A stretch of DNA of 64,000 bases from an uncultured Myxococcia bacterium (GTDB lineage: Bacteria > Myxococcota_A > UBA9042 > PHBI01): assembly GCA_942493285.1 (NCBI GenBank), contig OW818691.1, forward strand, positions 1,234,321-1,298,320, in the 5' to 3' direction. How positions within the stretch are numbered: position 1 is the stretch's first letter; each line of letters opens with the position of its first letter. Shown piece after piece: positions 28,546-47,288 of this stretch. The translations under genes and the position numbers were made by a program. The notes below the pieces were generated by a model. It saw nothing but the letters and a program-made list of their open reading frames with translations. It had not been told where the DNA came from and did no database searches.

Positions 28546-30111
28546 TCAGGTCCTTGGAATCACTGAGAGGTAGACTGTGACGCCGAGGCCCCGTAGTGAA
28601 CGGATTGCCTCTGCAAAAGCAATCTTTGAAAACAGAGGAAGACGAGGGACCTGGATCGTTCCCTTCTTCTTGCCACCCATCAAAAGCACCACCGAGAAGT
28701 GCTTCGATTTGGCGGCTGACGTCGGCCACTGGGCAACGTAGCGGGCCTCAATGTCAGCGATATAGGAAGCGTCGTTCCTCATGAGCCGCGCAGACACGGT
28801 CGCCTGGGAGAACAGGTGATTCCAAACTGCAGAGGTCTTGCCTGCCTTGACATGAACGAACTCCCACTTGTCAGTCAGTACATCACAGGGCTCGATCTTG
28901 CTCGTCCCGCGATAGAAGAATTTTTGGTCTTGAAGCAGCGATGAGAGCGAGTTTGCGATATTGGCGTTGAACGCGTCTTCCTTCATTCCCATCGGCCAAG
29001 GGGGAAGTTTGCTTGCGCTCGGCCAAGGAGGTAGCGCCGCAATACGGGCATTGAGACCAGTTACGTAGTTTTGGCCTGGAAGCAACCAAATGCCACGAAG
29101 GAACAGGTAGCTCTTACCGCCGTGTTTCACCTCTGCCTCAAGAAACCGTGCGAGTCGAGCTCGCGTCACCTCGCCATTCACGTCTCTGAATGAGAGGTTT
29201 GCCTTCGAGAGGTTCTTGGACGTGAGCCCCTCAGCAGCAATCACGCCCTCAAGCCCCTTTTGAGTCGGCGAGCCGAGTATGAAGTCTTTGGTTGCAACGG
29301 TCAGTGTGAAATCCGTCCCTTCAAGTTCAGCCTCAAGTGGAAGCGCCAGGACTACAAGGCGAGCATTTGTCGTCCCAGTTTGGTGCGCCAGTTGCTTGTG
29401 GAGAGCGTCGTTCAGTTTGGCCCTCAGTTTCGGCTCCCGCACGCGCTGAACGTCGTCGAGAAATTTCAGGTCTGGAGGGAGCGGCCGCCGAAGCAACTTG
29501 AGGGTATGTCGTAGCACCTTCTTGAGGTCTGTAAAGTCGCCCTTCCACGAGCGTATCCGTAGGCAGTCGGTTCCGGCAAAGAAGCTGCCAACGACGGGCG
29601 ACGCTGTCGAAGGTCGACCTGCGAGCGCCGCAAACACGTCAATGCCAAGGTCGAGGCCAAACTCATCGGGCTTGCCGGACGAGGCCCGGAATGTCGAGAC
29701 CTCCAGCGGATTCATGTCTGGCCGAAGGGTCCGCATGTGCATGACCCGCTCCGGGTCAATCAGACGGGATGCGCAATCGAGACCGTACCTCGATTGAAAG
29801 ATGCCTGCGGTGATTGACGACCACCCGTGTCCGAAGGCGACAGCGAAGACCCGCTCCCTCGTCTTTGACTTTGCCGAAATGAGCACTAGGCCCGAGGCGC
29901 TCTGATTCTGTGGGGTGGCGCCGTCCAGCGCTATGCCCAGCGCGCCCAACCACTTCACCCAGGGCGGCGTCTTGAGTGAGTTCTGCTTCAAGAGGACCCG
30001 AACGGCCTTTCCCGGATTAGCTGCCGCAGCTATCTCGTAGTATCCATCCGGGATCGGCACGGCAGCAAGACTGGCAAACTTCCGTCTGAGCAAGAACACG
30101 GTCAAATTCAT
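28546..30111 (-). CDS. Hypothetical 521-aa protein (possibly TIGR04141-like sporadically distributed family)
   Basis: Long ORF, sole occupant of cassette; C-terminal CDVLTDKWEFVHVKAGK resembles that family; weak assignment. Confidence 0.45.
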   Translation of the reverse strand: MNLTVFLLRRKFASLAAVPIPDGYYEIAAAANPGKAVRVLLKQNSLKTPPWVKWLGALGIALDGATPQNQSASGLVLISAKSKTRERVFAVAFGHGWSSITAGIFQSRYGLDCASRLIDPERVMHMRTLRPDMNPLEVSTFRASSGKPDEFGLDLGIDVFAALAGRPSTASPVVGSFFAGTDCLRIRSWKGDFTDLKKVLRHTLKLLRRPLPPDLKFLDDVQRVREPKLRAKLNDALHKQLAHQTGTTNARLVVLALPLEAELEGTDFTLTVATKDFILGSPTQKGLEGVIAAEGLTSKNLSKANLSFRDVNGEVTRARLARFLEAEVKHGGKSYLFLRGIWLLPGQNYVTGLNARIAALPPWPSASKLPPWPMGMKEDAFNANIANSLSSLLQDQKFFYRGTSKIEPCDVLTDKWEFVHVKAGKTSAVWNHLFSQATVSARLMRNDASYIADIEARYVAQWPTSAAKSKHFSVVLLMGGKKKGTIQVPRLPLFSKIAFAEAIRSLRGLGVTVYLSVIPRT

Positions 30112-30628: not shown

Positions 30629-30720
30629 AACAAGCGCATCGAACTGACGCGGCCTAATCGCGATGGGGCCTATCAGCCCCATCGCGATTGATCGGCCGCG
30701 CAGCTCATGCGCAGGACGTT
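30629..30720 (+). repeat. attC-like palindrome, copy 11
   Basis: Full-consensus copy. Confidence 0.9.
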
Positions 30721-31399
30721 GGCTGGCCCCAAACGCCAAAGCTGGACGTAGTTCATCGACTGTCGCCCATTCACCGCTCCGCACAGACTCTGTTGGATTG
30801 CCCGCAACCGATCTCTTGCTCTGGGCAACCGAGCCTTCGTCTCCCGAAGCCAGCCCGACGCCCATCGCTCCATGTCTCCATGTCGCCATAGTCTCCCTCG
30901 GCCTCGCTTCGGCTGCCCCTCGACCTCAGCCGATTCAGAGGTCCTCTTCATGCCCTTGGCCCCCATCCACTGCATCGTGCCGCCCCGGTCGCTTCTGCAT
31001 CGTTCACTCACCATACTTGCCTAACGCATCGTGGCACCCCAAGGTCGGGGTCCGGTAGCGTTTGGGGAGAAAATGTTGACTACGTGTGGAGAGAAACCAG
31101 ACCCATCTTCTATAGGTGTGTGGAGGCCGACGTGTCGATGAGTAGCTCCGCACTCCCAAAAACTTCTCAGCTGGCGCTGGCGACTGCCGATTGGCCCACC
31201 ATCAATCGTCGCCTCTATGCTCACGCTTTGCAGGTTGCCGAAAACTTCAAGTGGGCTGGTCAACGATATCGTCATCTGGCGAAGGGCAAGACTCTTGAGG
31301 ATGTGGTCTACGGTGCCGTCGAGGCAGTCCTAGCAGGCTGCTGAAATATGGGGTCGATTGGACCTCCCCTCCGGCCCACTTACGTCCATTGTGGACGCT

Positions 31400-32600
31400 C
31401 AGTACTCCGCTTGGAGGCGGGGGCGCCCCCTCCAGAGTTCGGCAAGTCGTGCTTGTGGCTTCAGTCTCTCATGCGGCGGCGGCGAGTCGGTTGATGTTGT
31501 TGATTTTGACCAGGTTGAAGGCGGCACCGACGAGCTTGGCGAACCATCCGATTCGTTCGAGCCCTCGATATCGAGCCCGCTTCATGCGACCTGGTTGCTT
31601 CATCCAACCGAAGACCGCTTCTATCTCGCGCCGCTTGATCAAGCTGATGGCATAGCCGGGAAACCGCGTCGTCCTGGAGTCGATGTTCGACTTGCGGCGG
31701 CCTGGCTGCTCGTTTCTCGCGACATGCGGCGTGACGTTGCGGTCGCGCAGCTGGTCAACGAAGTCTTTGGTGTCATAGGCTTTGTCAGCCCCAAGCGTGA
31801 TGCGAGACGTCCCCGCAAGGTTCTCATCGATCATGGCGATGGCCGCATCGCGCTCGATGGTGCCCGTGACGATGTCAGCGCGGGTGTCGACGATCAGTCC
31901 GTTGCGGTTCTCCATCAGCGCATTCACGGCATAGGAGAGTTCGGCTCCAGACCCGGCGCTCTTGCGAGCCAGTCGAGAATCGGGGTCCGTCGTTGACGCA
32001 TGGGTGTCATTCGAGCGCTTCTCGCCCTTGAAGTCTGACCAACCGTTCGAGTCACCAGGGTCTGAGTCCTTGGGCTTGAAGCTCTTGTGGGACGCCATCG
32101 CAGTGATGATGGTGCCGTCCACCGAGAAGTGTTCATTGCTCATCAAGCCAGCGGTCTCGGCCTGCGCCACGATGGACTTGAGGAACGCATTGGCGACATC
32201 GTGCTCGATGAGTCGCTCCCGGTTCTTCGAGAATGTGGATGCATCGAAAGCGGGGCCCGTGAGGTCCATGTCTACGAACCAACGGAACAGCATGTTGTAC
32301 TCGAGCTGCTCGCAGATTTGGCGCTCGCTCCGGACCGAGAAGAGCACCATCAGGAGCAGCGTCTTGAGCTGCCGTTCGGGCGGGATCGACGGCCGACCCA
32401 CGCTGCTATACATACTCTCGAACGTCCCATCGAGCTCCGCCAGAGCCGCATCAGCCAGCTTCTTGATGCCTCTGAGCGGATGGCTCGGTGGCACGAGTGA
32501 GCCGGGCGAGACGAGCATGAGCATGGAGGGCTGACTGGTTTTGGAGCCGCGCATACGCGCGTTAGATCATAGGGTTAGGAGAAAGTCGATCCGGCTTCTG
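31400..32600 (-). mobile_element. IS5-family insertion sequence (approximate bounds)
   Basis: Contains IS5-family DDE transposase ORF; ends not mapped. Confidence 0.45.
31469..32554 (-). CDS. IS5-family DDE transposase
   Basis: 361 aa; N-terminal InsH-like region (PERQLKTLLLMVLFSVRSERQ) and DDE region (ADKAYD..., FGWMKQ...R). Confidence 0.6.
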   Translation of the reverse strand: MRGSKTSQPSMLMLVSPGSLVPPSHPLRGIKKLADAALAELDGTFESMYSSVGRPSIPPERQLKTLLLMVLFSVRSERQICEQLEYNMLFRWFVDMDLTGPAFDASTFSKNRERLIEHDVANAFLKSIVAQAETAGLMSNEHFSVDGTIITAMASHKSFKPKDSDPGDSNGWSDFKGEKRSNDTHASTTDPDSRLARKSAGSGAELSYAVNALMENRNGLIVDTRADIVTGTIERDAAIAMIDENLAGTSRITLGADKAYDTKDFVDQLRDRNVTPHVARNEQPGRRKSNIDSRTTRFPGYAISLIKRREIEAVFGWMKQPGRMKRARYRGLERIGWFAKLVGAAFNLVKINNINRLAAAA

Positions 32601-33018
32601 CGCGGCTCGGACTTTTTCAGCAGCCTGCTAGTACAGCCTGACCTCTGGAGCCCAGAACGCGGGAGTCTCGAGCATTTCCTCAAACTTCTCGTCAGGAGCG
32701 ACCTAACGAGAATCGCTCTGAGCGGCGCTCGGAAGCGCGAGAGCTTCGGAGACGTCGACGACTTCGAGTCAAACTTGCTCGACCCCGAGAGCACTATAAT
32801 CAGGGCCGAAGAGGAGGACGCATATCGAGTTCAGATACGAGCGATGCAGCTAGCCTTCTCCGCCGACCCGATTGTCAGTCGAATCCTCGCAGGATGTCTC
32901 CAAGGAGGATCCATGAAGCCGAGGTTTCTGGCAGAATCGCTGAACTTGGGATTGCCCCAGGTCAATGCCGCCCTCAAGCGTCTCCGGCGCTGGGCTTGGA
33001 CCCCAAGAGAGTCAAGCC

Positions 33019-33408
33019 ATGAGTAAGATTTCGGTCCAAGAGCAAATTGAGTCGATTGTCGCGCTTCTCAATGAGGAAGACTTGCCTGCGGAGGATCAAG
33101 AACGTTTGATCCAGGGCGCAGACAAGGCAGTCTTGGTGCGACTCAACGCACTCACCGCCCGCTTCGTCGCTGAGAATTCGATAGCTCGGACCACCGCGGC
33201 GCAACAACGCAAGGAAGCTCTCAGGGAGCGGCTGCAGATGGTCCAGAAGTCGAATCTGTCCCGAGACGAACTGATCCTCCGCATCCAAGGCAAACGCGAG
33301 CTTCTTGGAAGCGCAGCCCCAGCATTCTTTCGGAGCTTCCTCGACGTCACCGACGAGGATCTGGCGAGCCATCTCGCGGACCTGGAGTTCCTGGACGGTG
33401 AGCGATGA
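33019..33408 (+). CDS. Hypothetical coiled-coil protein, partner of ImmA-like peptidase
   Basis: Stop overlaps start of downstream ImmA-like gene (ATGA at 33405). Confidence 0.35.
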   Translation: MSKISVQEQIESIVALLNEEDLPAEDQERLIQGADKAVLVRLNALTARFVAENSIARTTAAQQRKEALRERLQMVQKSNLSRDELILRIQGKRELLGSAAPAFFRSFLDVTDEDLASHLADLEFLDGER

Positions 33409-34253
33409 CTCGTCGATCGGCGTGTCGCGCGGAGTGGGCTGCAATCGAACTCGTGAGGCAGTGGGGAATCACCAGTGCCCCGGAGCTACACTATCTGGAT
33501 GACCTCGCTTTCATGGCAGGCGCACTCGTCGTCGACTCAATTCTAGAAGGCGCACAAGCGCGTCTCGTGTGTGGAGCCGGTCGGGCAATCATCAGCGTTT
33601 CGACGTCAATGACGTCAGAGAGACGTCGTTTCGCTATCGGGCACGAGCTTGGTCACCTGAGGATGCACTCAACCAAACACCGGCACGCGTTGTGTAGTCA
33701 GGAAGACTTGGTGATGAGGCCCGCAGCCAACGAGCGGACCGCATTCGCAGAGCAGCAGGCCAATCTTTTCTCGTCAGCGATTCTCATGCCGGAGTTTCTC
33801 TTCGCGCCGCGCCTAGGAGGCGACTATCCCACGATCGCCACGCTCGAGTCGCTTGCTGCGGAGTTTGCGACTTCACTGACAGCGACCGCGTGTCGGTATG
33901 TTCGACTGACAACTCACTGTTGCGCGGTGATCTATTCGGTCGAGGGCATAGTCCATTGGGCGATGCCCAGTCAGAGCTTCCTCGACTCTCCTTTCAGGAT
34001 ACTCGGCGGTCCCGTCGATCGGTGCTCTCTTGCCGGCCTGCTGGGCGAGTTCAATGGCCCGGCTGTAGCTACCGAGCTACGCTCCCCAGCGAGCGCGTGG
34101 CTAGCTGATGGACCATACGACCGGGCCGCCTCACTTCGGGAGCTGTGTTGGCCAATGCCAAACTACCGCGCGACTCTGTCTATCATTCAGCTTGACTCTG
34201 ACATTCTCGATTTCGGCTTCAGTGCTCATAGAGATGGAGCTTACTTGTCGTAA
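33405..34253 (+). CDS. ImmA/IrrE-family zinc metallopeptidase
   Basis: HEXXH motif IGHELGHLRMH and downstream E (FAEQQANLFSSAILMP) typical of DUF955/ImmA. Confidence 0.55.
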   Translation: MTRRSACRAEWAAIELVRQWGITSAPELHYLDDLAFMAGALVVDSILEGAQARLVCGAGRAIISVSTSMTSERRRFAIGHELGHLRMHSTKHRHALCSQEDLVMRPAANERTAFAEQQANLFSSAILMPEFLFAPRLGGDYPTIATLESLAAEFATSLTATACRYVRLTTHCCAVIYSVEGIVHWAMPSQSFLDSPFRILGGPVDRCSLAGLLGEFNGPAVATELRSPASAWLADGPYDRAASLRELCWPMPNYRATLSIIQLDSDILDFGFSAHRDGAYLS

Positions 34254-34967
34254 CGTTCCGAAGTGGGGGATTGAACGTTGCCCCTCCTCCTTTTGAGCCG
34301 CCGAAGTAGGCACCTCCATCAGGCAGAGTTGCTCGGAACTCGACTTCCGCGTTCGACTCTGTCGTCGGCCCCCCGCGACGCGAGGCCAGCTAACGAGAGT
34401 CGGGGTCTCAAGGTCAGTAATAGACCGAGATTCCAAGCGCTCCCGAAGGCGTTCGAGGATTCACGGATGCCTTCCGGCCCGCCTGTTCGACCTTCGAGGA
34501 CACTTGCGCTCGTCACGCGCTCAGCCAAAGCCTGGCGAGGATTCTTGGACGGCTTCCGAGTGCGCCGAAAGCCGGCGGCTCAGAGCTCGGAAGACTGCTG
34601 TCCTGACGAGAGCGTCCCACGGAATCCTCGCACACGGTCTCTAGCGACGGGAGCACATCCCGTAGTCCTCGGACATCAACCCCGATTCTCCGGGCGCCTC
34701 CACCAAAGTTCGCGCCGCCTGTGTCCCGTATCCCGGCAGCGCCTTTGTGCACCTCCGAGCCTCGACGAGCTTCTATATCCTCAGGTCAGCGGTCTCGCGG
34801 GCCAAACCCCCATGGCAACGTCAACTGGTTCGTGGCCCAGCCCACGAACCAGAAGCAGAACTCTCCCACCTGCAAGAATGACGAGCTCGAGCTCGTCCTT
34901 CACCCTGACCCGAGCTTTCGTGCTGCCGTTCGGCGCGTGACGGGACGGCTATTTCACGAGGCCAGCC

Positions 34968-35059
34968 AACAAGCGCATCGAACTGACGCGGCCTAATCGC
35001 GATGGGGCCTATCAGCCCCATCGCGATTGATCGGCCGCGCAGCTCATGCGCAGGACGTT
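34968..35059 (+). repeat. attC-like palindrome, copy 12
   Basis: Full-consensus copy. Confidence 0.9.
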
Positions 35060-35458
35060 GTCCCGCACGAGGCCTGCTCGTTCCCTCGCCTTCCTCACCG
35101 CCTTCCTCCGAGAGCGCCCCGCATCCCTCAAGGCCGCTGCTCCGCCTGCAGGCCCCTGTCGTCTCCTTGCCCTCCTCGCCTGACTCGCTTCTGGAGGGAC
35201 GTGCATCCCTCAAGCCCCCGATGCCGGTTCGGTTCCTGGCCCTACGCCTCCCGTTGCTCACTGGGGCGCATCCCCCTCGCAGGGTTGCTCCTCGAGCTCG
35301 CGGTTGAGGTCGCCAGAGTGTCCCAATCGGAGAGACACCTGGCACACTTGGGACAGTTGCGGGACACTTTCGCGAGAAATAGCTGCGTGTTTTCAAGGGG
35401 CTGAGGTTGGCCCGGCTCTTGCTCATGGGTTCGCGTTTCCCAACACGAGAACCCGGTT

Positions 35459-36637
35459 ATGCACACGGAACCTACACGGCTCATCTCTCCATCCGTTCAG
35501 GGGGTGATTCGGCAGTTCGCGCCCAGCTACATCGCGAAGAATGGCAAGGGGTTACCCCTGTCGCATCGCAAGGCGCTTCGCCTCCTCTCTCAGTGTCGAA
35601 CGGTCGCGCTTGGCGGTCACGTGGTCGAGTGCGGCAACTGCAAGGTGCAGGACTACACCTACCACTCGTGCGGCCACCGTTCTTGCCCTCGCTGCATGTC
35701 GGAGGACTGTGATGCGTGGCTTGGCGCTCGGCGGAGTGAGCTGTTGCCGGTTCCTTACTTCCACGTGGTGTACACGGTGCCGGAGGGGCTGAACGGCGTG
35801 GTGCGGAGTCATCAAGGGGAGCTGTATCCAGTGCTGATGCAGGCGGCGGGTAACTCGCTTCTGGCAGTTGCGGCCGCGCCTGACAACCTGGGGGGTAGGG
35901 TAGGGGTGATGTCGACGCTGCACACGTCGTCGAGTGCGCTGGCGTACCACCTTCACGTGCACTGCCTTGTCCCCGCGGGGTCGGTCGATGCAGAGGGCGA
36001 GTGGCATGACGCGAAGGACTCGCGCCTGGGGTCAGAGAGCGCGCTTGGCAAGGCTTTCCGGGACAAGGTCGGTTCGATGATGAAGGCCGCAGTCCCGGAC
36101 GTTGCGCTGCCGGACGGGGTGTTCGACCTCGCGTGGAAGGTGCATCTCGAGGTACCGCAGCACGGGGCGGAGACGGTGCTTCGGTATCTGGGTCGCTCGG
36201 TTCACCGCGGCCCGATGAGTGACCACCGCATCGTGTCTGTGACCGAGACCCATGTCGTGTTCAAGTATCGGGACAAGGACCGCACGAAGGCCAAGACGAT
36301 GTGCGTGGACGGCCACGAGTTCCTTCGTCGCTTCCTGCAGCATGTTTGGCCCGACCGGGTGCACAAGGTGCGCTACGCTGGCTTGTGGAGTCGGAAGTGT
36401 CGGGCGGAGCTTCGTGCACTCAGGCAGCGACTCCTGGCAGCCATGCAAGTCGAGCCACCTCCTGCGGTCGGGGAACCGAAACCGCTGCTACCCCCTGAGC
36501 CCGTCCTACCTCCGTGGCGTCGCTGCCCTCACTGCCAGGCGGAGCGGTTCATCGTGGCTCGCTTCAAGGCTGGAACCACCCCACCACCCCTGGTGGACCC
36601 GCTGCAGGGCACACTACCCGGGATAGACCCTCCCTGA
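35459..36637 (+). CDS. IS91-family (HUH Y2 rolling-circle) transposase
   Basis: N-terminal Zn-binding domain (ALGGHVVECGNCKVQDYTYHSCGHRSCPRCM), VPYFHVVYTVP, HUH motif HLHVHCLV, downstream tyrosines (LRYLGRSVH...). Confidence 0.8.
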   Translation: MHTEPTRLISPSVQGVIRQFAPSYIAKNGKGLPLSHRKALRLLSQCRTVALGGHVVECGNCKVQDYTYHSCGHRSCPRCMSEDCDAWLGARRSELLPVPYFHVVYTVPEGLNGVVRSHQGELYPVLMQAAGNSLLAVAAAPDNLGGRVGVMSTLHTSSSALAYHLHVHCLVPAGSVDAEGEWHDAKDSRLGSESALGKAFRDKVGSMMKAAVPDVALPDGVFDLAWKVHLEVPQHGAETVLRYLGRSVHRGPMSDHRIVSVTETHVVFKYRDKDRTKAKTMCVDGHEFLRRFLQHVWPDRVHKVRYAGLWSRKCRAELRALRQRLLAAMQVEPPPAVGEPKPLLPPEPVLPPWRRCPHCQAERFIVARFKAGTTPPPLVDPLQGTLPGIDPP

Positions 36638-37059
36638 TGGCGAAGCGACGGCCCTTCCGAGTATCCCGTATCCCGTCACGACCTCACGCACGAACGTGTG
36701 GTCGTCTCGCAGAGATCTGCCCTGTGAACGCCAGCGCAAGCCACTCCACGACCGATTTCGAGCGTCGGGAGCGTTCCACGCGCCACGAGTCCTCCAGTCT
36801 GCCAATCAGACTGCTCTACGGACCCGAAACCGAGGCCTCTTTGACCCGAAAAGGAGGCGATTCGGCTCCCCTCAGAGGGGCCTGCGAGGGGGCAGAACAT
36901 ATAAAATGCAGTAGGTCGCCTCGACCGCCACTGGCAAGGGTCTGCGAGCATTCGCCGTCGTCTCGAGGACAGGCCTTTCTTGGCCACCGCACTCACCGCA
37001 GGACCCCGACGCCCAATCAGCTGGAGTCGAGGCGCTAGCGACTTCAGACGTGCGGGGAC

Positions 37060-37151
37060 AACAAGCGCATCGAACTGACGCGGCCTAATCGCGATGGGGC
37101 CTATCAGCCCCATCGCGATTGATCGGCCGCGCAGCTCATGCGCAGGACGTT
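37060..37151 (+). repeat. attC-like palindrome, copy 13
   Basis: Full-consensus copy. Confidence 0.9.
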
Positions 37152-37435
37152 GGGCGGCGTACCCACTCCCACCCACTGTCCCACCTCCACCTCCGCTCCG
37201 TCGGCGCTTCACTCTACCTCTTCCTACTAACACATCATCTCTCGCTGCTTCACTCCACCACCGCGCTCAAACGCCCATACACCTGGGCTCGCAACAGCTC
37301 GCCCACCATCACCACAGCCGGCAACCCCGCTCCCCGCTTGGTGCGCGTAACCTGGCTTGCCAAGAACTCAAGGCTATGTTCAAATTACCACACCTCGCAC
37401 TCGTTTCCTTGGTACCTCGATCGGAGTAGTAGTAA

Positions 37436-38386
37436 GTGTCAGAAACCTCCAACATCGCTGCAATGGCAAACAAGCTCAGCAATGAGATCTTTGGAGTCTT
37501 CGGTTGGACGTCCGTTGGGCCAACGGACATCAATTGGGACTGTACCCAGCCGACTCACAACTGCCAGACTCACCCATCCGATGTTGTTTTCTGGTACGAC
37601 GATCCGTACCAAGGAGACCGTGTCTACGTCAACTTTGACCTGAAGAGTTACGCGGCGAAAACCTTGCAAAAGAGCAAAGTCACCAAGGCTCTCCACAGCC
37701 TAGCAAACGCTGTCGAATGCGCCAACAGCGGAGACTGCTGGCGTGCAACTTACGTCGACGCCGATGTCAATTGGCATTGCGACGGCGCGCTCTTCGTCTA
37801 CAACCACGACCACGGATTCGACAAGTCGTTCCGCGCCCTCTTCGACGAGGCCTCCGCAACAGTCAAAGTCCCAAAGGGCAGACGCCTCTGTGTATTCGGG
37901 CCACCCGAGATTGAGTACCTGTTCAACGTCGCCACCGACATCTTGACACTGAAGGGCAGGGGTGAACTCCCCAGCGGCAAGGAATCCGAGTTCTGGTACC
38001 CTGACCTCGTCACCGCACGACGCCACACACAGCAGAAATCCGCAGCCAGCATAGAGATGTTGACGGGGCCTTGGATCACTCTTCGAGCATCGGCCTCCGT
38101 CCCGAAATACTATCTCTGGTATAGGAGCGGAGGTGCCAGCACGATCGACCACTTCAAGTATCTCCTCGACTTCGTGTTCCGCTACCAAGTTCTTGCGTCA
38201 GATGACACGAGTGTCATCGTGCGCCTTGTTGGCGCTGACTCCAATGCTGTCTCAAATTTCTCCATCGCCAAGGACCAGTACTCACGCATGATGCATCTTG
38301 ACCCAAGCCGTTTGCGAAACGTAACCGCCTCGAATGTGGATGCAGCCCGGCGTGTTTTTGACCAGACCGAAATCGGAATGGAGTAG
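37436..38386 (+). CDS. Hypothetical protein, gene 1 of a three-gene operon (possible PD-(D/E)xK-like nuclease fold)
   Basis: 316 aa; D...D...(D/E)xK-like arrangement (WYDDPYQGDRVYVNFDLKSY), weak; GTG/ATG start ambiguity (37436 or 37463). Confidence 0.45.
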   Translation: MSETSNIAAMANKLSNEIFGVFGWTSVGPTDINWDCTQPTHNCQTHPSDVVFWYDDPYQGDRVYVNFDLKSYAAKTLQKSKVTKALHSLANAVECANSGDCWRATYVDADVNWHCDGALFVYNHDHGFDKSFRALFDEASATVKVPKGRRLCVFGPPEIEYLFNVATDILTLKGRGELPSGKESEFWYPDLVTARRHTQQKSAASIEMLTGPWITLRASASVPKYYLWYRSGGASTIDHFKYLLDFVFRYQVLASDDTSVIVRLVGADSNAVSNFSIAKDQYSRMMHLDPSRLRNVTASNVDAARRVFDQTEIGME

Positions 38387-38388
38387 TC

Positions 38389-39567
38389 ATGGCAGGCAGA
38401 ACCCGCAGTGCTCTGTATTTCGCGGATGACAAAGACGTGCTCGACGTTCTCACTCTCGCCAAGAAGAAGATCACCCCGGCGCGACTTGTAGAACTCGGAA
38501 AGCGACGCGGTCTCCTTCTCTCTTCCGATGACTCCCGGGAGACCCTCGCCGAGCGGATCGCGAAGTTGCCATTTGACTGGACGGAGCTCGAACACCTTTT
38601 GGGTTTCGTCGACTCTGCGAGCAGGGCTGAAAAATTGTCGGTTCACTCTTTCCTCGCAACGGTGGCCCCGGCTGACCTCAAAGACGCCGTCGAAGCTACT
38701 AAGGTTGCACGCCAAGACCTTCGCGGAGAGGTGTTCTCGATCTCGACCGTTGGAAACACCACTACCGTCTCGGTGAAATACACGGAATTGGACCCCAATC
38801 GTACTCGCCTCGTGCAGCGGACCGAGCGCGAGTTCAGTATGGAAATCCTCCAGACCTCCGAGGGATTTAAGGTTCGCCATCAGGCGCAAGAGCGCGCCGA
38901 TGACGTCAGGAACGAGATTCTCAACAAACTCATCGAGCTCACGAAGCCTCCCGCCCCGCCAGAGGCCCGCCCAATCGAGCTTTCGTCGATCCGTAGTCCG
39001 CGACACCGCACGAATTTCTTTGTCCAGCTCATGAAGCTCCCAGGCTTCGAGCTTGAAGACGTCGTTGTCGTAAACGGTGCCATATTGGACGACGACGCTG
39101 ACAATGACGACAATGACGAGGCATTTGACCCCGGACTCACCAACCACGTTCGCCAAGTAGCCCTCCGTGGGGGCAAGCTACTCGACTCCAAGGAGTACGC
39201 AGAGCTCTTTAAGGAGGAGACTGGCCGCTTCATCAGCTCAGTCATCTGGCGTGCGAATGAGCAGAAGGGAGATAGGACCCGCGTCGAGATCGAGGCCGGA
39301 TTCGGCAATGCCGTGAATGCTACCGATTTCGCCTTCTCTATTCGGAAGGCTTGGGTCCGCAATTCCAGTGGAGACATCAAGAAGACCAAGGTTCAGAACA
39401 CCGAGCGCCTGGTTCTCGAGAAGAGACTTGCGCCGATCCTTGAGAAGGCTGCTGATGACGCCGTCGCAAATGTGCTCAGGGATGCCTCTGCCGACACAGA
39501 AGATGTCGTTGAAGCGCTCGCCGCTGCATCCGAAGGTGTCTCCTCCTCCGACGGTGGTTCCAAATGA
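38389..39567 (+). CDS. Hypothetical protein, gene 2 of the three-gene operon
   Basis: 392 aa; start 3 bp after upstream stop; acidic low-complexity stretch DDDADNDDNDE; no recognised motif. Confidence 0.45.
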   Translation: MAGRTRSALYFADDKDVLDVLTLAKKKITPARLVELGKRRGLLLSSDDSRETLAERIAKLPFDWTELEHLLGFVDSASRAEKLSVHSFLATVAPADLKDAVEATKVARQDLRGEVFSISTVGNTTTVSVKYTELDPNRTRLVQRTEREFSMEILQTSEGFKVRHQAQERADDVRNEILNKLIELTKPPAPPEARPIELSSIRSPRHRTNFFVQLMKLPGFELEDVVVVNGAILDDDADNDDNDEAFDPGLTNHVRQVALRGGKLLDSKEYAELFKEETGRFISSVIWRANEQKGDRTRVEIEAGFGNAVNATDFAFSIRKAWVRNSSGDIKKTKVQNTERLVLEKRLAPILEKAADDAVANVLRDASADTEDVVEALAAASEGVSSSDGGSK

Positions 39568-40241
39568 AAGCAGCTTGGTGCTGTTGGTACTCTGCGGCTC
39601 TGACCGCGGTCGACTTCAGCTCGCTTCCTGCCGCGCTTAGGAGCTGGAGTTCTCGGGATGTCGAAGGGCGTGTTCGGTTGGCTAACGCACGACGCGATAG
39701 TCTGTCAGGCAGCTATTCTCTGCGACAGGACTGGACCGAACGAGTTGCCGGGGCCGATGGACTATTCGAGGACGCAGAGATTCCCAGAGTTCGAATTCTC
39801 TCTGTCCAGTTCCGCCTTAGCACCACGTACCCACAAGTCGAGCTATGGGGCGCTCGCTCAGCAGGCCGTCTTCTGCTCAAGGAACTCGCGAGCCTTCTAC
39901 CTTCGGCCTGCCCGGCTCCGATACCTCTACAGCCGATTGACTGGTTTGGAGCCATTGAGGCCGGCCATGAGGTTCGAACCGTCGGAATGGTGTCAGCACA
40001 GATTCCACTATCATCAAGCGTCGTAATGAGGGCGCACTTCGACGGGACGACCGACATTCGTCCGCTCCTGTCCAAGAAGTTCCCCGCCCTTCTAAAGTCA
40101 CCACGGAAGCTTGTCGTCCAGATCCAGAAGAGCACGGGCTTTTCCCAGGTGGAACTCGGAACTAACGCCAGCGCTCGGGTGCCGCCGAATGACGAAGAGT
40201 CGCGTGCCCTGCTCCGGTCTGCAATTGCCACCCTCGTCTAA
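39564..40241 (+). CDS. Hypothetical protein, gene 3 of the three-gene operon
   Basis: 225 aa; ATGA start/stop overlap with gene 2. Confidence 0.4.
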   Translation: MKAAWCCWYSAALTAVDFSSLPAALRSWSSRDVEGRVRLANARRDSLSGSYSLRQDWTERVAGADGLFEDAEIPRVRILSVQFRLSTTYPQVELWGARSAGRLLLKELASLLPSACPAPIPLQPIDWFGAIEAGHEVRTVGMVSAQIPLSSSVVMRAHFDGTTDIRPLLSKKFPALLKSPRKLVVQIQKSTGFSQVELGTNASARVPPNDEESRALLRSAIATLV

Positions 40242-40298
40242 CGTCAGTCCCAACTCGACTTCTTGCGCTCAAGCAACGGACCTACCGCAGCGCCGCCC

Positions 40299-40390
40299 AA
40301 CAAGCGCATCGAACTGACGCGGCCTAATCGCGATGGGGCCTATCAGCCCCATCGCGATTGATCGGCCGCGCAGCTCATGCGCAGGACGTT
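40299..40390 (+). repeat. attC-like palindrome, copy 14
   Basis: Full-consensus copy. Confidence 0.9.
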
Positions 40391-40447
40391 GTCCCGCGAA
40401 GCCTGCTCCGTTCTCAGCTGGATTGACTGCATAGCCTCTTCCCCTCT

Positions 40448-40700
40448 CAGCTGGACTCACCATCATCCATCCTCGGGGTGGACTCACCATCATCCGTCCT
40501 CGGGGTGGACTCACCATCATCTGTCCTCGGGGTGCACTCACCATCATCCGTCCTCGGGCTCGAGTCACCATCAGCCGTCCTCGGGTTGGACTCACCATCA
40601 TCCATCCTCGGGCTCGACTCGCCGTCGTTCATTCTCGAGGTCGACTCACCACCATTCACCATCGGTCTTCGGACTGGGCTCGCCGTCGTTCATTCTCGGA
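40448..40700. repeat. 27-bp tandem repeat (GGTGGACTCACCATCATCCGTCCTCGG, ~10 units)
   Basis: Period 27 counted; starts ~55 bp after attC. Confidence 0.85.
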
Positions 40701-40759
40701 TGTGGCAATTCGGCTCCGTTGCGCACTCGCCGAACAGTCGGCACGCAGCGGACGCGGAA

Positions 40760-41620
40760 TCGATGGCGTGCTAATTTGCGATGAGATGGCTTGGTGTTAG
40801 CACGCATGTTTCCCCGCCGGACTCGTTCGATCGCAACCTCGGATGTGGACTTGAGGATCGACAATCCAAGAGCCTCACTTTCGGCGAGAAGACCTTCAGC
40901 GTGAAGCGCACGTCAAGTCGCGCGGGCCACTTTGCGATGAGAAGGCTTGGTGTTAGCACGTGTACCTCGATTCAGGGCTCTGCGTCGCGCACTTCCGTCG
41001 TGCACTCGGCGAACCACTCGGGTGCATGTTGAATCGGGGGCGTGCTAATTTACGATGAGAAGACTTGGTGTTAGCACGCGTGCCTCCTCGCCGAACTCCT
41101 TTGGTCTCATCCTCCCGGTACCTGCTGACGTCGGCTTGCCGCCCCTCGGTCGCTCGGCTCCGATGTGCACTCGCTGAACAGTTGGCGCGCGGTCCTCGTA
41201 GAATCGGGGGCGTGCTAATTTACGATGAGAAGACTTGGTGTTAGCACGCCTGCTTCCCCGCCGAACTCGTGCCGTCTCATCCTCCCCGTGCCCGCCGATG
41301 TCAGCTTGCCGACCCTCGGTCGCCCGGCTCCGATGCGCACTCGCTGAACAGTTGGCGCCCGGTCCTCGTAGAATCGGGGGCGTGCTAATTTACGATGAGA
41401 AGACTTGGTGTTAGCACGCCTGCTTTCCCGCCGAACTCGTGCGGTCTCATCCTCCCGGTGCCCGCCGAAGTCGGCTTGCCGCCCCTCGGTCGCTCGGCTC
41501 CGATGCGCACTCGCCGAACAGTTGAAGCGCGGTGCGTGTTGAATCGGGCGCGCGCTAATTTACGATGAGAAGACTTGGTGTTAGCTCGCGTGCTTTCTCG
41601 CCGAACTCGTACGGTAGCAG
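40760..41620. repeat. ~170-bp tandem repeat (5-6 units), each with a conserved 39-bp hairpin GCGTGCTAA-N21-TTAGCACGC
   Basis: Hairpin copies at ~40766, 40925, 41041, 41211, 41381, 41551; last four exactly 170 bp apart; no credible ORF. Confidence 0.85.
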
Positions 41621-41640
41621 AGCCACCTTCCATCCCCGCG

Positions 41641-41850
41641 TTGGACTGGCCATCGCTCATTCTCGGGCAGCCTCACGAGCGCGAGCTCTGGCTCGGACTC
41701 ACTGTCGTCCATTCTCAGGTGGCGCTCACCATCGTTGATTCTCGGGGCTGGGTTGAACGCACCACCTCCATTCTCCGAGGTGGACTCGCCATCGTTCAAT
41801 CTCGAGGTGGACTCGCCATCGTTCAATCTCGAGGTGGACTCGCCATGCGT
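41641..41850. repeat. 27-bp tandem repeat (GGTGGACTCGCCATCGTTCAATCTCGA family)
   Basis: Same family as 40448-40700. Confidence 0.75.
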
Positions 41851-42157
41851 GGCTGTCGTGTGCGGAATGTCGTTTGTACAGATTTGCCCCGCCGAGACCC
41901 GTGGCTCACTCCTCGTGGAGTCTTAGAGCCACCGGAGGGTAGGGCGGCTGCCAGGCGTCGACTACTTCTCCCCGCCACGACTCCCGCTCCCACCACCCCG
42001 CCGCACTCCGCCTCGCCTGTATCCGACCGCACCTCGCCAGGCTCCACCTGCGGTCTGCCAGGAACCGCTCCTCCTCGACTCAAGACCCAAATCTCGCAAT
42101 TACCTGAAGCACTTCTCTCCCTTCATCGCGCCAACTCCCGCGTGGCTTCGCGGGGAC

Positions 42158-42249
42158 AACAAGCGCATCGAACTGACGCGGCCTAATCGCGATGGGGCCT
42201 ATCAGCCCCATCGCGATTGATCGGCCGCGCAGCTCATGCGCAGGACGTT
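42158..42249 (+). repeat. attC-like palindrome, copy 15
   Basis: Full-consensus copy. Confidence 0.9.
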
Positions 42250-42357
42250 GTCCGGCGTGCGCACTCAGAACTGGTTGCACTTCAGCGACGCCCCGCGCCT
42301 GGTATCTCCCCACCCCTTCCTTCATCGGCGCTAACCGTCTTCTCGGGAGACGCTCCC

Positions 42358-42712
42358 CTCTGAGGTTGATGGCGTTCTGGAGGTCGCGCAGCGCGACGTT
42401 GACGCCTCGGCTCTGTCGCCGTCGCTCCTTTCTGCGCTTGTCGGCATCTCTCCCTCTGGGGTTGAATGTCGCTCTGGAGGTCCTGCCCGACGTTGACGCC
42501 TCGGTCACCGACGCTCTCGTCCGGCGCTCCTGTCGGCGGACGTTCGTCTCTGGGCTGGATGTCGCTCTTGAGGTCGCGGCGCGTCGTTGTGGTCCTCCTG
42601 GGAGCCTTCCCGACCGCTTGGCGCCTTGCCCTCAGCCCCTTCTGTCCCATCCGTGCGACACTTTGGGACGGTTTGGGACGGTTTGGGACAGCTATGGGAC
42701 AGTTTGGGGTTG
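42358..42712. repeat. ~95-bp degenerate direct repeats (x2.5) followed by 10-bp GGGACRGTTT decamer repeats (x5)
   Basis: Visible repeated blocks TCTGRGGTTGAWTGTCGCTCTKGAGGTC...GACGTTGACGCCTCGG; decamers at 42655-42712; upstream of the diverged IS91-family transposase. Confidence 0.6.
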
Positions 42713-42884
42713 GCTTCACGTAGGCGTGATGCGGTCTTCATGGCTGGCATGGTTTTTGGCAAGAGCTCGGGTCCTCCAACTCAGGGACCTGAACATCTTG
42801 CCGCAATCGAGCCCTTCGACCTCAGCCATCTCCCTGTCTCTTGCTGACGTTCTTCGGCGGTTTGGTGCGAGGTACCGTTCGCGC

Positions 42885-43994
42885 ATGCGTGGGAGTTTGC
42901 CAGAGGAGCATCGGACTGCGATGCGGATGATCGAGAAGTGCCGCACGCCTGCTCTTGGCGGTCATGTTCTGGAGTGCGCGACGTGTGAGGGTGAGCAGGG
43001 GTATGCGTTCAACTCGTGCAATCATCGCTCGTGTCCGAAGTGCATGAGGGAGGCGTCAGCGAAATGGGTTGCAGCTCGGCACGAGGAAGTCCTCCCAGTG
43101 CCGTACTTCCATGTGGTTTTCACGGTGCCGCAGGAGCTGAACGCCATCGTTCGTGACGAGCAGCGGAAGCTCTATCCATTGTTGATGAAGGCGGCCGGGC
43201 AGGCCCTGGTCTCCATCGGGAAGTTGCCTGAGAACCTGGGTGCGACGCCGGCGGTGATGACGTCGCTGCACACGTCTTCGAATACACTCGTGTATCACCT
43301 CCATGTTCACTGTCTGGTTTCGGCTGGCGGTTTGGACGGGGAGGGGAATTGGAAGGCCTCGAAGTCCGAGACACTTGCCCCAACGCGCGCCCTTGGTGCC
43401 AGGTTCCGGTCTCGGGTACTTTCGCTGATGAAGTCAGCGGTGAAGGACCTCAGTGTCCCCGAGGCCGTGCTCAAGAAGGACTGGCAAGTCTACCTCGAGC
43501 TTCCCCACCACGGCACTCCGGCGTTGCTTGAGTACCTCAGTCGTCCGCTTCACTGCGGGCCGTTGTCGGAGTATCGCCTCGAGTCCATGACGGACGAGGA
43601 TGTGGTGTTCCGGTACCAGAAGAGTGGCGACCGGACCTGGCGCACGATGCGGTTGTCTGGACACGAGTTCCTTCGTCGGTTTCTGCAACACGTATGGCCC
43701 AGCGGTGTGCACCGGGTTCACTACTGTGGTCTGTGGCGTCGGAGGTGTCGTGAACAGCTTCGAGCTCTGCGCGCGCTCCTTCTCGGGTCAGCCCCCCCGG
43801 CACCGGCCGCCGCCCCAGTAGCAGCGCGTGCTGACGGGGATGTGCCCTCCGCTGACCTCGAGGTACCCCACTGGCTCAAGTGCCCGCACTGCGCCGGGAC
43901 GCGAGTCGTCGTCGCGCACTTCCGCGCAGGAGCGAAGCTGCCTCCGCTGACGCCACGCGGGTGGGGGGTAATCTCGCCGGAGCCACCGTCGTAG
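42885..43994 (+). CDS. IS91-family transposase, diverged second type (N-terminus may start earlier at a non-ATG codon)
   Basis: ALGGHVLECATCEGEQGYAFNSCNHRSCPKCM, VPYFHVVFTVP, HLHVHCLV; aligns along its length with the 35459-36637 transposase but with different sequence; 600-aa ORF-track call starts inside the attC repeat and is an artefact. Confidence 0.6.
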   Translation: MRGSLPEEHRTAMRMIEKCRTPALGGHVLECATCEGEQGYAFNSCNHRSCPKCMREASAKWVAARHEEVLPVPYFHVVFTVPQELNAIVRDEQRKLYPLLMKAAGQALVSIGKLPENLGATPAVMTSLHTSSNTLVYHLHVHCLVSAGGLDGEGNWKASKSETLAPTRALGARFRSRVLSLMKSAVKDLSVPEAVLKKDWQVYLELPHHGTPALLEYLSRPLHCGPLSEYRLESMTDEDVVFRYQKSGDRTWRTMRLSGHEFLRRFLQHVWPSGVHRVHYCGLWRRRCREQLRALRALLLGSAPPAPAAAPVAARADGDVPSADLEVPHWLKCPHCAGTRVVVAHFRAGAKLPPLTPRGWGVISPEPPS

Positions 43995-44315
43995 TGCAGC
44001 TCACACACCGCTCTGAATCCCACCTCGTCCTCATGGCCTCGCGAGCGGCCGTAAGGGACTGGTCCGTCCGGAGTCGGGTCAGCGCCCCCTCCGAATGCCA
44101 ATTCTTCTCTCTGAAGGCCCGTCAAAGTCGCCTCGAGACCACCCAACTTCCAAGAACCCCCTCGTCGAGGACCGAAAGCCGTCACCGCTCGCTCGCCTTC
44201 AGCCTCCTCCCTGACCACCAGATTCCTATATATCGCATAGGGCCCAGAGGTCCCTCTCGACGGCTTGCAGAGCGGCTCTCACGCCCACCCAAAGCCCATC
44301 CAATGGGCGCCGGAC

Positions 44316-44407
44316 AACAAGCGCATCGAACTGACGCGGCCTAATCGCGATGGGGCCTATCAGCCCCATCGCGATTGATCGGCCGCGCAGCTCATGCGCA
44401 GGACGTT
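44316..44407 (+). repeat. attC-like palindrome, copy 16
   Basis: Full-consensus copy. Confidence 0.9.
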
Positions 44408-45292: not shown

Positions 45293-45947
45293 GGCCAGGA
45301 TGGTAGCGCACGTCGGGGCATGGGCCAAGGGTGGTGTTTCGAATCCAGGCCAGGTCCACGCGCACAAACCGAGCCCATCGTCTGAACCAGCCGATCGGAC
45401 GGTAGGTTTGAAGCCTTGCCCGATTACGCGGAGAGTTGGAATCGGCGGGGTCGAGCGACTCAAGTCGCGTCCTCGCGCCGAGTGGCGACGGCGCTATGAC
45501 TGCGCCTTCTTTCTCGCGTCTCGTATTCGATGCGCGCGCTTCACGTGTAGGGCATAGGACGGGTCAAACCCTCTCAGACCCGCTAAAATGAACGACCGGC
45601 CCCCCGGGTGGGCACGTTTGGACCCGTCGGTCGGCCACCCAGCCCCCCCGGTTGGGCACGTTCGGACCCGTCGGTCGGCCTCCCGGCCCCCCGGGTGGGC
45701 ACGTCGGCCTGGTCTGTGGACTCGCCCGGACCACTGGTTGGTATGCCGAGACCCCGACCGAGGGGCGTTCGGACCAGAATCCCAGGGCCAATCGGACGCC
45801 TGTCGCGGCAGCTCCTTCGAAGTCTCCCTTTCTTTGGCCCCCTTCGCGACGGCGCCCTTTCCATCCTTGGAGCGTCGACGCATTGACATGAGCCCATGCG
45901 TGGCCTACGAGAACCCGCAAATGCCACCTCGACGGAGGACTATCGAT

Positions 45948-47288
45948 ATGACGACTCCCGCTAACGCCGCCCGAACCGCCATCGCTTTGTCGCTGTTCGT
46001 CGCCCTGTCCTCAGTTGTTCGCGTCGAGGCCGCCGAGCCGCCCCCGTCCGCCGCGCTGCAGCTCGTCCCCGCGGATGCAGAGGAGTGCCGCGATCAGCCC
46101 GTTCTCGTCGGTCAGACCACGAGGCAGCTGGGCGAGCTCTTCGATCGCGTGAGCACCCTCTTGCAACACGCCCAGATGTTGGGCTGCGCCTACCCTCGGG
46201 GGACCAGAGGGGCTTGGCCCGGCGCATACTGGGGCGAGACCCTGATCCTGGCGTACCTGGCGCGTTCGGAGTACTCTGGCGGCGATCCGGTGATGGTCGC
46301 CTTCGCCTTGAACGCGTACTCTCGCCTCATGGTGCGCCCGGAGGCCCCTTTCCGGGAGCAACGCAAGAACATCGCCGCCGTCCTTGCAGGGTACCACCGC
46401 CTGATGCCGCTCGACGTGATCACCAGGGCGGTCCGCGCAGCGCTCCCAGTGGCACTCGCAGAGGTGTTGATCGCGGGCTGCGCGGAGGGATTCGATGACG
46501 CGCGCGCCCAGGGGCCCGAAGACGCGCTTTGGACGGCATATGAGACGTACGCCACCGAGGCGGCCCCGGTCGCGGTCCTCCTCCGGGAGTTGAGGGCTCA
46601 AGCCGCGAGCGGGGCGACGGATGCCGTGCTTGCACGACTCGACAGCGAGCGCCAAACGCTCCTCGACGCCGCGAAGGACCGCGAGGCAGCCCTGCGCGCT
46701 CCCGCATTTCGGGAGCTCACCGGTATCGCGCGAGCCATCTCCAGCACTTCGGGGGCCCAGCGCCCCTATGAGCAGTTGCTCCCCGAGCCATTGCTTCCCA
46801 CCTGGATGCTGGCCACGACCAAGGACCGTCAGCGAAGGAATCTTCCCTTGACCTCTTCAGCGCTGGATGGCGTCGAAATGGCGTGGCGCGTGGTCCGCGC
46901 AGGCGAGTTCAGGCGCGGCAAACCCACCCCCGGGTCAAACTTCTTTACCGCGCGCGTCAAGAAGGTCGGTCGCGACGCCGACGGGAAGTCCCTAATCGAG
47001 CTCGACAACAAGCAGACCACGTCCTATGCGGGACAGTGTCGCACTACGTTGGTCTTCGTCGACGCGGCGGGACAGGGCTGGGGCAAAGAACGGTGTAGCG
47101 GGTCAGCTGAAATCACGACCACCTCCGGCCCCCCGACGGTGACCTTGCCGACCGCGTCGGTCGCCGCACTCAAGAACGGTCGCTACGTCGAATATTTTTC
47201 GGACGAGGCAGGGGCTACCGGACATCTGGGCCGGGTCTGGGACGCGAAGTTTGACAAGCTGCTCGCCATCGGCCCTTTCCGGCTGTGA
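45948..47288 (+). CDS. Hypothetical secreted protein
   Basis: Start at Met followed by signal-peptide-like TAIALSLFVALSSVVRVEAA; 446 aa. Confidence 0.45.
   Translation: MTTPANAARTAIALSLFVALSSVVRVEAAEPPPSAALQLVPADAEECRDQPVLVGQTTRQLGELFDRVSTLLQHAQMLGCAYPRGTRGAWPGAYWGETLILAYLARSEYSGGDPVMVAFALNAYSRLMVRPEAPFREQRKNIAAVLAGYHRLMPLDVITRAVRAALPVALAEVLIAGCAEGFDDARAQGPEDALWTAYETYATEAAPVAVLLRELRAQAASGATDAVLARLDSERQTLLDAAKDREAALRAPAFRELTGIARAISSTSGAQRPYEQLLPEPLLPTWMLATTKDRQRRNLPLTSSALDGVEMAWRVVRAGEFRRGKPTPGSNFFTARVKKVGRDADGKSLIELDNKQTTSYAGQCRTTLVFVDAAGQGWGKERCSGSAEITTTSGPPTVTLPTASVAALKNGRYVEYFSDEAGATGHLGRVWDAKFDKLLAIGPFRL

Follow-up and report, generated by a model that had tools for sequence, protein, structure and literature searches.

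We describe a three-gene operon, hp1-hp2-hp3, carried by an uncultured Myxococcia bacterium (GenBank assembly GCA_942493285.1, contig OW818691.1, positions 1,234,321 to 1,298,320), and relate its products to those of the anti-phage system 3HP. The 64,000-nucleotide (nt) stretch that was analysed, referred to here as the window, has a G+C content of about 60% and is occupied almost entirely by an array of integron gene cassettes; the operon is the whole genetic content of one of them. All positions given below are those of the window. The genes of the operon, and the features within them, are as follows.

37436 to 38386, + strand: hp1, 316 amino acids (aa), 35.5 kDa, GTG start; PD-(D/E)xK nuclease, predicted effector
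37571 to 37645, + strand: predicted Hp1 active-site codons, H46-P47-S48-D49 (37571-37582) and D68-L69-K70 (37637-37645)
38389 to 39567, + strand: hp2, 392 aa, 43.4 kDa, acidic (isoelectric point, pI, 5.3); predicted partner or scaffold of Hp1
39088 to 39129, + strand: acidic low-complexity linker of Hp2, residues 234-247, DDDADNDDNDEAFD
39564 to 40241, + strand: hp3, 225 aa, 24.6 kDa, basic (pI 9.55); RdgC/Iml3/RexA-type fold, predicted DNA-binding subunit

Organization of the operon

The three open reading frames (ORF1 to ORF3) are tightly coupled on the + strand, and their positions, sizes and both junctions are exactly those given in an earlier reading of the same DNA, here called the original prediction. 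The stop codon of ORF1 lies two bases 5' of the ORF2 ATG, within a TAG-TC-ATG junction at 38384-38391, and hp2 and hp3 share an ATGA overlap at 39564-39567. Ribosome-binding sites of the GGAG type are located 8-12 nt 5' of ORF1 and of ORF2; homologues back the start of ORF1, in that their consensus, M-A/S-E-T-x-N-I, opens as ORF1 does. Highly significant homologues were found for all three proteins, so the genes are not chance ORFs. An antisense ORF of 324 aa (38182-39156, - strand) lies opposite hp1 and hp2, and since the sense genes have strong homologues we read it, by reasoning alone, as a shadow ORF of a G+C-rich coding region. Pfam and NCBIfam searches with the three ORFs returned nothing at E <= 1 (the Pfam set searched was without the PF26115 model, discussed below), which agrees with the original prediction's statement that no common motif could be recognized by eye.

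The operon as an integron cassette

The operon stands between two attC sites, which delimit the following unit.

37056 to 37155, + strand: upstream attC, 100 nt; R'' GGACAAC at 37056-37062, perfect 14-bp inner hairpin at 37087-37120, R' GTTGGGC at 37149-37155
37150 to 40388, + strand: integron gene cassette with three genes, 3,239 nt; crossover between the G and the first T of GTT at both flanking attC sites
40295 to 40394, + strand: downstream attC of the 3HP cassette, 100 nt; R'' GCCCAAC at 40295-40301, R' GTTGTCC at 40388-40394

At the upstream site the crossover point falls between G37149 and T37150. The bottom strand of this attC folds into a bulged structure at -39.6 kcal/mol (z -6.9), and the downstream attC folds at -42.5 kcal/mol (z -6.5). 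Non-coding ends of 286 nt on the 5' side and 53 nt on the 3' side enclose the operon, with no gene beyond the three; the attC-bounded unit thereby bears out the original prediction that these genes are the sole content of a 3.2-kb cassette.

The same repeat is present 22 times, always in a single orientation, between positions 315 and 60124, with an identical 34-nt inner palindrome—zero copies are expected by chance. The R'' anchor was found in 20 of the 22 sites, and each of these is 100 nt long, conserved from AAC to GTT, with RYYYAAC-like and GTTRRRY-like ends and an architecture in which a perfect 14-bp hairpin sits inside a bulged outer stem. The 5' end of the 3HP cassette, TTGGGC, is the reverse complement of the R'' (GCCCAA) in its own 3' attC, and this relation between the R' at a cassette's 5' end and the R'' of its own 3' attC holds for the 3HP cassette and at least 13 others. 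The pair is GTTGGGC/GCCCAAC in the 3HP cassette; rare pairs elsewhere are GTTCGCC/GGCGAAC, GTTGTCT/AGACAAC and GTTGGCT/AGCCAAC. Because the complementarity runs cassette by cassette, rare variants included, we take the repeats to be attC sites of integron cassettes recombined within GTT.

The repeat had also been suspected of being an IS91 terminus, on account of the IS91/Y2 transposase genes that flank the cassette; this was rejected, as the repeats bound unrelated cargo and R' and R'' covary. The array comprises at least 22 cassettes of 1.8-6.4 kb. The last attC ends at about 60124 and is followed by two minus-strand genes, at 60597-62420 (DUF5677) and 62606-63460. An integrase gene (intI), attI and Pc are absent from the window and, by the polarity of the array, are expected to the left of position 1; an Rfam scan of the whole window gave no matches.

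Identification as 3HP

3HP was cloned from a P2-like prophage hotspot of Escherichia coli and is protective against phage P1 (Rousset et al. 2022, Cell Host Microbe, PMC9122126). The validated plasmid, pFR109, carries the genes of E. coli E1114 as 'hp + hp + hp', with protein sequences in Table S2A; expressed from its native promoter, the system blocked P1 alone among the eight phages tested (PMC9122126). Later papers use the name 3HP, and a Vibrio phage record labels the genes Rst_3HP__Hp1/2/3. The families have been held in PADLOC-DB and DefenseFinder as 3HP / Rst_3HP since 2022-23; their PADLOC ids are PDLC03004-03006, and the PHROGs equivalents 7059/6531/5850 are all marked 'unknown function'.

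The first two proteins of the operon are recognized directly. ORF1 matches PADLOC Hp1 (PDLC03004) at E 4.2e-61 over residues 2-288 of 316, and shares 36% identity with the validated E1114 Hp1 over its full length (BLASTP, E 2e-69). ORF2 matches PADLOC Hp2 (PDLC03005) nearly over its full length at E 1.3e-39, as well as phrog_6531, and is 31% identical to the validated E1114 Hp2 (BLASTP, E 7e-41), their acidic inserts aligning with each other. A weak PADLOC BrxC/PglY match to ORF2 (E 0.013) was taken as chance.

ORF3 gave no match to PADLOC Hp3 (PDLC03006) at E <= 1 or to phrog_5850 at E <= 0.01, and a word-indexed homologue search found one match for it, near-identical, and two for ORF2. An exhaustive HMMER search with ORF3 found 35 relatives, mostly of 206-246 aa; 26 of the 28 sequences in the ORF3 family alignment match PDLC03006 (best E 4.7e-25), and the family profile aligns with the validated Hp3 at 99.6% probability (HHalign, E 1.3e-23, 218 columns), with an identity of about 14% between ORF3 and the validated protein in the profile alignment. 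An independent hidden Markov model (HMM), built from the third genes of 83 syntenic loci described in the next section, scores ORF3 at 54.9 bits (E 4.5e-19), the best of 2,000 shuffles reaching 5.3 bits. Since the public models miss ORF3, yet the independent syntenic HMM recovers it, we regard it as an unusually divergent Hp3. Automated annotation would probably report 3HP here as incomplete or miss it, because Hp3 escapes the PADLOC and PHROGs models.

That the operon is a 3HP orthologue can be considered nearly certain. The original prediction had presented it as an operon of unknown function and a candidate novel defence or abortive-infection system, to be checked with PADLOC and DefenseFinder. 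The defence part of that claim stands, given an orthologue of a validated system in an integron array with defence cargo; the claims of novelty and of unknown function do not, as the check returns 3HP—known since 2022, and already present in both databases—even though the PADLOC Hp3 model misses ORF3. The original prediction had also named remote homology to a metabolic pathway as a refutation, and no metabolic homologue was found. The operon is a real defence system and not a new one: a divergent member of the already validated 3HP.

Conserved synteny and distribution

A scan of a collection with one genome per species gave 197 Hp1 relatives, with a best match of 47%; the best 80 loci were fetched, together with seven phage and E. 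coli loci, and every ORF of the fetched loci was scored with HMMs of Hp1, Hp2 and Hp3. Loci with at least 1.9 kb downstream were counted as assessable, and the other four end at contig ends. Hp1, Hp2 and Hp3 follow one another in the same order and on the same strand in all 83 assessable loci, with stop and start codons mostly overlapping; the synteny whose absence would have spoken against the original prediction is clearly there. No attC of the type found in our array occurs at the closest relatives (67% identity, L093-L095) or at the other fetched loci.

Hosts of 3HP include Myxococcota, Verrucomicrobiota, Acidobacteriota, Cyanobacteria, Campylobacterota, Bdellovibrionota, one Clostridia metagenome-assembled genome and many Pseudomonadota. 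The genomic settings are equally diverse: a P2-type hotspot of Klebsiella and E. coli, in which 3HP lies between portal and dinI with replication endonuclease next in order, filamentous Pseudomonas phages, one Vibrio phage, an E. coli tRNA-Thr island, and plasmids. On an island of Paraburkholderia tropica-type contigs (L089/L090, 2580-9002) a 3HP homologue lies between a TIR-domain gene and a Gabija-like pair, the latter consisting of an OLD-like TOPRIM/AAA_15-21 ATPase and a UvrD-type helicase. The system is rare in E. coli, where it was found in 27 of 5,426 complete genomes.

Hp1, a predicted nuclease

Hp1 carries a predicted PD-(D/E)xK active site. In its structural model the core is alpha-beta-beta-beta-alpha-beta, with the Asp opening beta2 and the (D/E)xK in beta3, as in a PD-(D/E)xK nuclease; two successive strands, 45-55 and 62-72, hold the active-site residues. 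The HPSD and DLK columns are invariant in a 48-sequence Hp1 alignment, and the HPxD...DLK motif is present in every Hp1 of loci L001-L088. A profile search with Hp1 against the sequences in the Protein Data Bank (PDB) gave chance-level matches only. Database annotation points the same way as the model: Pfam PF26115 (PDDEXK_GAPS4) is assigned to all of at least 120 ORF1 homologues, among the matches listed, one of them 67% identical (these are precomputed annotations of homologues, not of ORF1 itself), one UniRef entry for an Hp1 homologue reads 'GAPS4 PD-(D/E)XK nuclease domain-containing protein', and more recent PGAP annotation describes the Hp1 of E. coli as a 'PD-(D/E)XK nuclease domain-containing protein'. 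We consider it likely that Hp1 is a DNase effector.

The Pfam name leads to GAPS4, a system of two proteins, GAPS4a and GAPS4b, that comes from GMT islands of Vibrio and has a homologue in E. coli (Mahata et al., bioRxiv 10.1101/2023.03.28.534373, 10.1101/2025.09.07.674715). Of the two, GAPS4a is the PD-(D/E)xK protein, though a divergent one; an Asp near its N-terminus (D59 in MAVP-R, D49 in RiKo) is essential, and the protein forms with GAPS4b a 2:2 heterotetramer of 160.8 kDa (bioRxiv 10.1101/2025.09.07.674715). The DNase is reported to be switched on by DNA breaks; upon infection, or exposure to nalidixic acid or a type VI secretion system DNase, host and phage DNA are degraded. Defence is abortive, and is blunted by DNA-binding homing endonucleases (bioRxiv 10.1101/2025.09.07.674715). 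Pfam thus names the Hp1 domain after GAPS4, yet 3HP and GAPS4 are named separately; they may be the same or sister systems (L089 4001-6805; L093-L095). The GAPS4-RiKo proteins (WP_028132563.1, WP_028132564.1) were absent from the inspected 3HP loci of complete E. coli genomes, where three allele sets occur.

The fold of Hp1 resembles type II, IIS and ISP restriction enzymes and the modification-dependent enzymes MspJI and AspBHI, which would fit Hp1-Hp2-Hp3 as a restriction-like nuclease that reads a phage-specific DNA modification or structure and cuts foreign DNA only, sparing the host. The activity of the P2-hotspot system against P1 only, among eight phages (PMC9122126), fits this as well, as protection restricted to P1 suggests a specific trigger. 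However, a methyltransferase or other modification gene accompanies none of the 83 syntenic operons, Pfam searches detected no specificity or reader domain, and the related GAPS4 degrades host and phage DNA alike; we consider self/non-self restriction unlikely.

Hp2 and its acidic linker

Hp2 has no recognizable domain: no Pfam match was found, the profile search against PDB sequences gave chance-level matches only, and Pfam searches on 25 members of the family returned nothing consistent. One of the 25 matched HeH (E 0.019), and an N-terminal SAP/HeH/Rho-N DNA-binding motif, which had been considered, was dropped as unsupported. The acidic low-complexity insert that the original prediction had noted in ORF2 proved to be a family trait; each of the 25 Hp2 sequences in the alignment, that of the validated E. 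coli system among them, has an acidic linker of variable length at this point. By analogy, Hp2 may be the counterpart of GAPS4b, with which it agrees in size and position only.

An acidic segment with the look of a DNA mimic, in an operon with tight translational coupling, brings to mind a toxin-antitoxin (TA)-like addiction module, in which Hp1 would be a toxin restrained by the acidic Hp2, by Hp3 or by both, the module would stabilize its cassette or carrier, and defence would be a side effect. Integron arrays commonly hold TA cassettes, and the module is also found on prophages, filamentous phages and plasmids. Nonetheless, we find this improbable—the validated homologue protects against phage from its native promoter, the proteins exceed the usual TA pairs in size by a wide margin, the database searches found no similarity to known TA families, and neither GAPS4a nor GAPS4b is active alone or described as toxic.

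Hp3, a predicted third subunit with an RdgC-like fold

Hp3 is a basic protein with a fold employed by dimeric, sequence-non-specific DNA-binding proteins. The fold is of the RdgC type, matching E. coli RdgC chain 2owl_B; the predicted binding of DNA has the pI of 9.55 as its sole support. At the level of sequence the relationship disappears: Pfam searches at E <= 1 on ORF3 and 28 relatives found no RdgC and nothing consistent, and the Hp3 profile gave chance-level matches only against PDB sequences. A role for Hp3 as a DNA-binding sensor or regulator is a reasonable candidate, to which we give odds somewhat below even.

RdgC is a modulator of RecA and of replication restart, and its resemblance to Hp3 could be taken to mean that the operon is a recombination, repair or replication-restart accessory of mobile elements—an RdgC-like RecA modulator paired with a structure-specific nuclease, working on the DNA of the element itself and not in defence. 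Where it is carried by P2-like prophages, the operon adjoins dinI and the replication endonuclease gene, and one depositor annotated the third gene as 'RdgC-like exonuclease'. The dinI-adjacent site is, however, a known P2 defence hotspot where unrelated defence systems are exchanged; the operon is not confined to phages, being found in defence islands and integron cassettes too, and an anti-phage phenotype has been shown for the family. An accessory role therefore strikes us as very improbable.

A proposed mechanism

Because the Pfam family, the mass of a 2:2 complex and the position of the Asp all fit, we propose that Hp1-Hp2 is a latent GAPS4-like nuclease complex. The Asp of HPSD is residue 49 both in Vibrio-type Hp1 and in ORF1, and in Vibrio-type loci two copies each of Hp1 and Hp2 have a combined mass of 158-161 kDa. 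In the proposed scheme, Hp1 and Hp2 would form a nuclease complex comparable to the GAPS4a/b heterotetramer, which would stay idle until infection yields abnormal DNA, such as breaks, free ends, or replication and recombination intermediates. The acidic linker of Hp2 may serve as an intramolecular DNA mimic that holds the complex off DNA. Once active, Hp1 would degrade phage and host DNA with no sequence or modification specificity, and the infected cell would die or arrest before phage release (abortive infection). Hp3 would most likely encircle or clamp DNA, and may either sense the state of DNA on behalf of Hp1-Hp2 or keep autoimmunity in check.

These steps are not equally secure. That DNA breaks or ends are the trigger and that the outcome is abortive seems to us close to an even bet, though slightly short of one. 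More tentative is the idea that 3HP could be GAPS4 with an obligate third subunit, Hp1-Hp2 being the same machine as the break-sensing GAPS4 DNase and Hp3 its DNA-state sensor, clamp or autoimmunity brake; as a brake, Hp3 might for instance mask chromosomal breaks or block RecA-dependent repair of degraded DNA.

Weighing the evidence

Several points count against our interpretation of the operon and its mechanism. The phenotype is known for the E1114 system alone, from which ours differs at 31-36% identity for Hp1 and Hp2 and about 14% for Hp3. The mechanism is borrowed by analogy from GAPS4, which is described as a two-gene system, while our operon and all 83 assessable related loci have a third gene, here translationally coupled; the GAPS4a motif is HGxD-SxK, as opposed to HPSD-DLK (HPxD-DxK) here, with two positions differing; and the literature searched contains no paper that joins GAPS4 and 3HP, the GAPS4 mechanism preprint itself being without 3HP. 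Finally, a scan of 36900-40500 for promoters of one type and for terminators found no sigma-70-like promoter and no meaningful terminator.

The last point raises the prospect of a silent or decaying copy, unexpressed or non-functional in a cassette distant from the integron promoter. The 286-nt leader is without a sigma-70-type promoter, at least 22 cassettes make up the array and this one is deep inside it, and Hp3 is divergent enough to be missed by the PADLOC and PHROGs models. On the other hand, the promoter scan was limited to one promoter type, the three ORFs are uninterrupted, run to full length and align collinearly with their homologues, and every invariant residue of Hp1 and Hp3 is retained. 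Independent assemblies contain an ORF3 of 97% identity and a partial ORF1 of 95% identity, which is consistent with purifying selection. We hold decay to be a very slim prospect, and it is likely that the operon functions as an anti-phage defence in its own host.

In the explanation we favour, the operon represents 3HP (Rst_3HP; Hp1-Hp2-Hp3) in a divergent yet complete form, carried as a single cassette of a large chromosomal integron, and we place the probability of this explanation as a whole at roughly 0.75. With the system itself already known, the value of the locus is in the probable relationship between 3HP and GAPS4, the RdgC/RexA-like third subunit, and the packing of a three-gene system as one integron cassette. 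The mechanism of 3HP is undescribed under that name; the PDDEXK_GAPS4 link and the fold of Hp3 give a concrete, testable model. If 3HP were indeed GAPS4 plus Hp3, two separately named systems would be unified and 3HP would gain its first mechanism, and the RdgC/RexA fold would emerge as a recurrent DNA sensor in phage exclusion.

Other cargo of the array

Among the genes of the other cassettes are the following.

4538-5899, 45588-47288 and 58432-59637: large ORFs without any match
10853-11773, + strand: protein with cyclic nucleotide-binding and TIR domains, Pycsar-type effector (PADLOC PycTIR, E 2e-96; Pfam CAP12-PCTIR_TIR)
13433-14521 (- strand) and 33405-34253: two helix-turn-helix (HTH) or ImmA/IrrE (Peptidase_M78) proteins
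15910-17241: GmrSD_N/NsnA-like protein (E 5e-28)
17464-18489, - strand: DUF4062 protein
26128-27984: AAA_21/AAA_15 ATPase, AriA/GajA/OLD-like
28546-30111, - strand: DUF6119 protein (E 1e-79)
50138-51280: Fic + DUF4172 protein

The description of the array in the original prediction as rich in defence modules is a fair one, given the PycTIR, NsnA/GmrSD-like, AriA/GajA/OLD-like, DUF4062, DUF6119, Fic, and HTH or ImmA/IrrE cargo. No cyclase gene was identified in the PycTIR cassette, and the protein may be an orphan Pycsar effector. The largest cassette (19347-25738, 6.4 kb) contains a KAS-III-like 3-oxoacyl-acyl carrier protein synthase gene at 19666-20682, followed by ORFs of 634, 288 and 394 aa without a Pfam family; the 634-aa ORF, the only one of the three scanned, also had no PADLOC match, and the set is a candidate multi-gene module.

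An IS91-family Y2 transposase gene (Zn_Tnp_IS91 + Y2_Tnp, 392 aa) fills entire attC-bounded cassettes of 2,092 nt at 35058-37149, 51545-53636 and 55658-57749. There are four near-identical copies of it (97-100%), including 48069-49247, and a diverged copy in 42248-44405. A rolling-circle transposase as a multi-copy integron cassette is unusual, and the element may target or hitch-hike on attC sites. A conventional insertion sequence has also invaded the array; an IS5-like DDE transposase gene (DUF772 + DDE_Tnp_1; 31469-32554, - strand) lies within a 4.3-kb cassette (30719-35057). The cassette directly downstream of the operon (40389-42247) holds no convincing gene and is full of tandem repeats: 27-nt x7.6 (40452-40655), 170-nt x3.4 (41031-41615) and 27-nt x2.6 (41776-41846).

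Comparison with known systems

The closest comparison is with the validated 3HP of E. coli E1114. Both consist of the same three families in the same order, with similar sizes (about 320-335, 355-395 and 225-230 aa) and overlapping junctions; in both, Hp1 has the HPxD...DxK site and Hp2 an acidic linker. They differ in sequence (36%, 31% and about 14% identity), with our Hp3 under the PADLOC and PHROGs thresholds, and in setting—an integron cassette here, a P2-like prophage hotspot in E1114.

As to GAPS4, homologues of Hp1 belong to Pfam PF26115, and the operon has in common with GAPS4 an N-terminal PD-(D/E)xK site whose key Asp is found around residue 49-59. In both systems the nuclease gene is followed by a gene of about 370 aa without a known domain, and the mass of the doubled Hp1-Hp2 pair fits the 160.8-kDa complex. 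Shedu (SduA) and Hachiman (HamA/HamB) are more distant: there is no sequence homology to either, and Hp2 and Hp3 are unrelated to their partner proteins. Hp1 lacks both the helicase partner that marks Hachiman and the DUF4263 architecture that marks Shedu.

Hp3 is without detectable sequence similarity to RdgC, lambda RexA or Iml3-Chl4 (CENP-L/N), and is shorter than the E. coli RdgC chain 2owl_B (225 aa compared with 301); a ring dimer and DNA binding are only predicted for Hp3. Its partner is the putative nuclease complex, whereas that of RexA is the membrane protein RexB.

Integron cassettes as carriers of defence have already been published (Kieffer et al., 'Mobile Integrons Encode Phage Defense Systems', bioRxiv 10.1101/2024.07.02.601719). 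Our case differs from those in that three genes share one 3.2-kb cassette, and in that the array is large and chromosomal, not a mobile integron; 3HP is not in the main text of that paper. It resembles them in being a defence system packed as an attC-bounded cassette within an integron array, and is one more instance of integrons serving as reservoirs of anti-phage systems.

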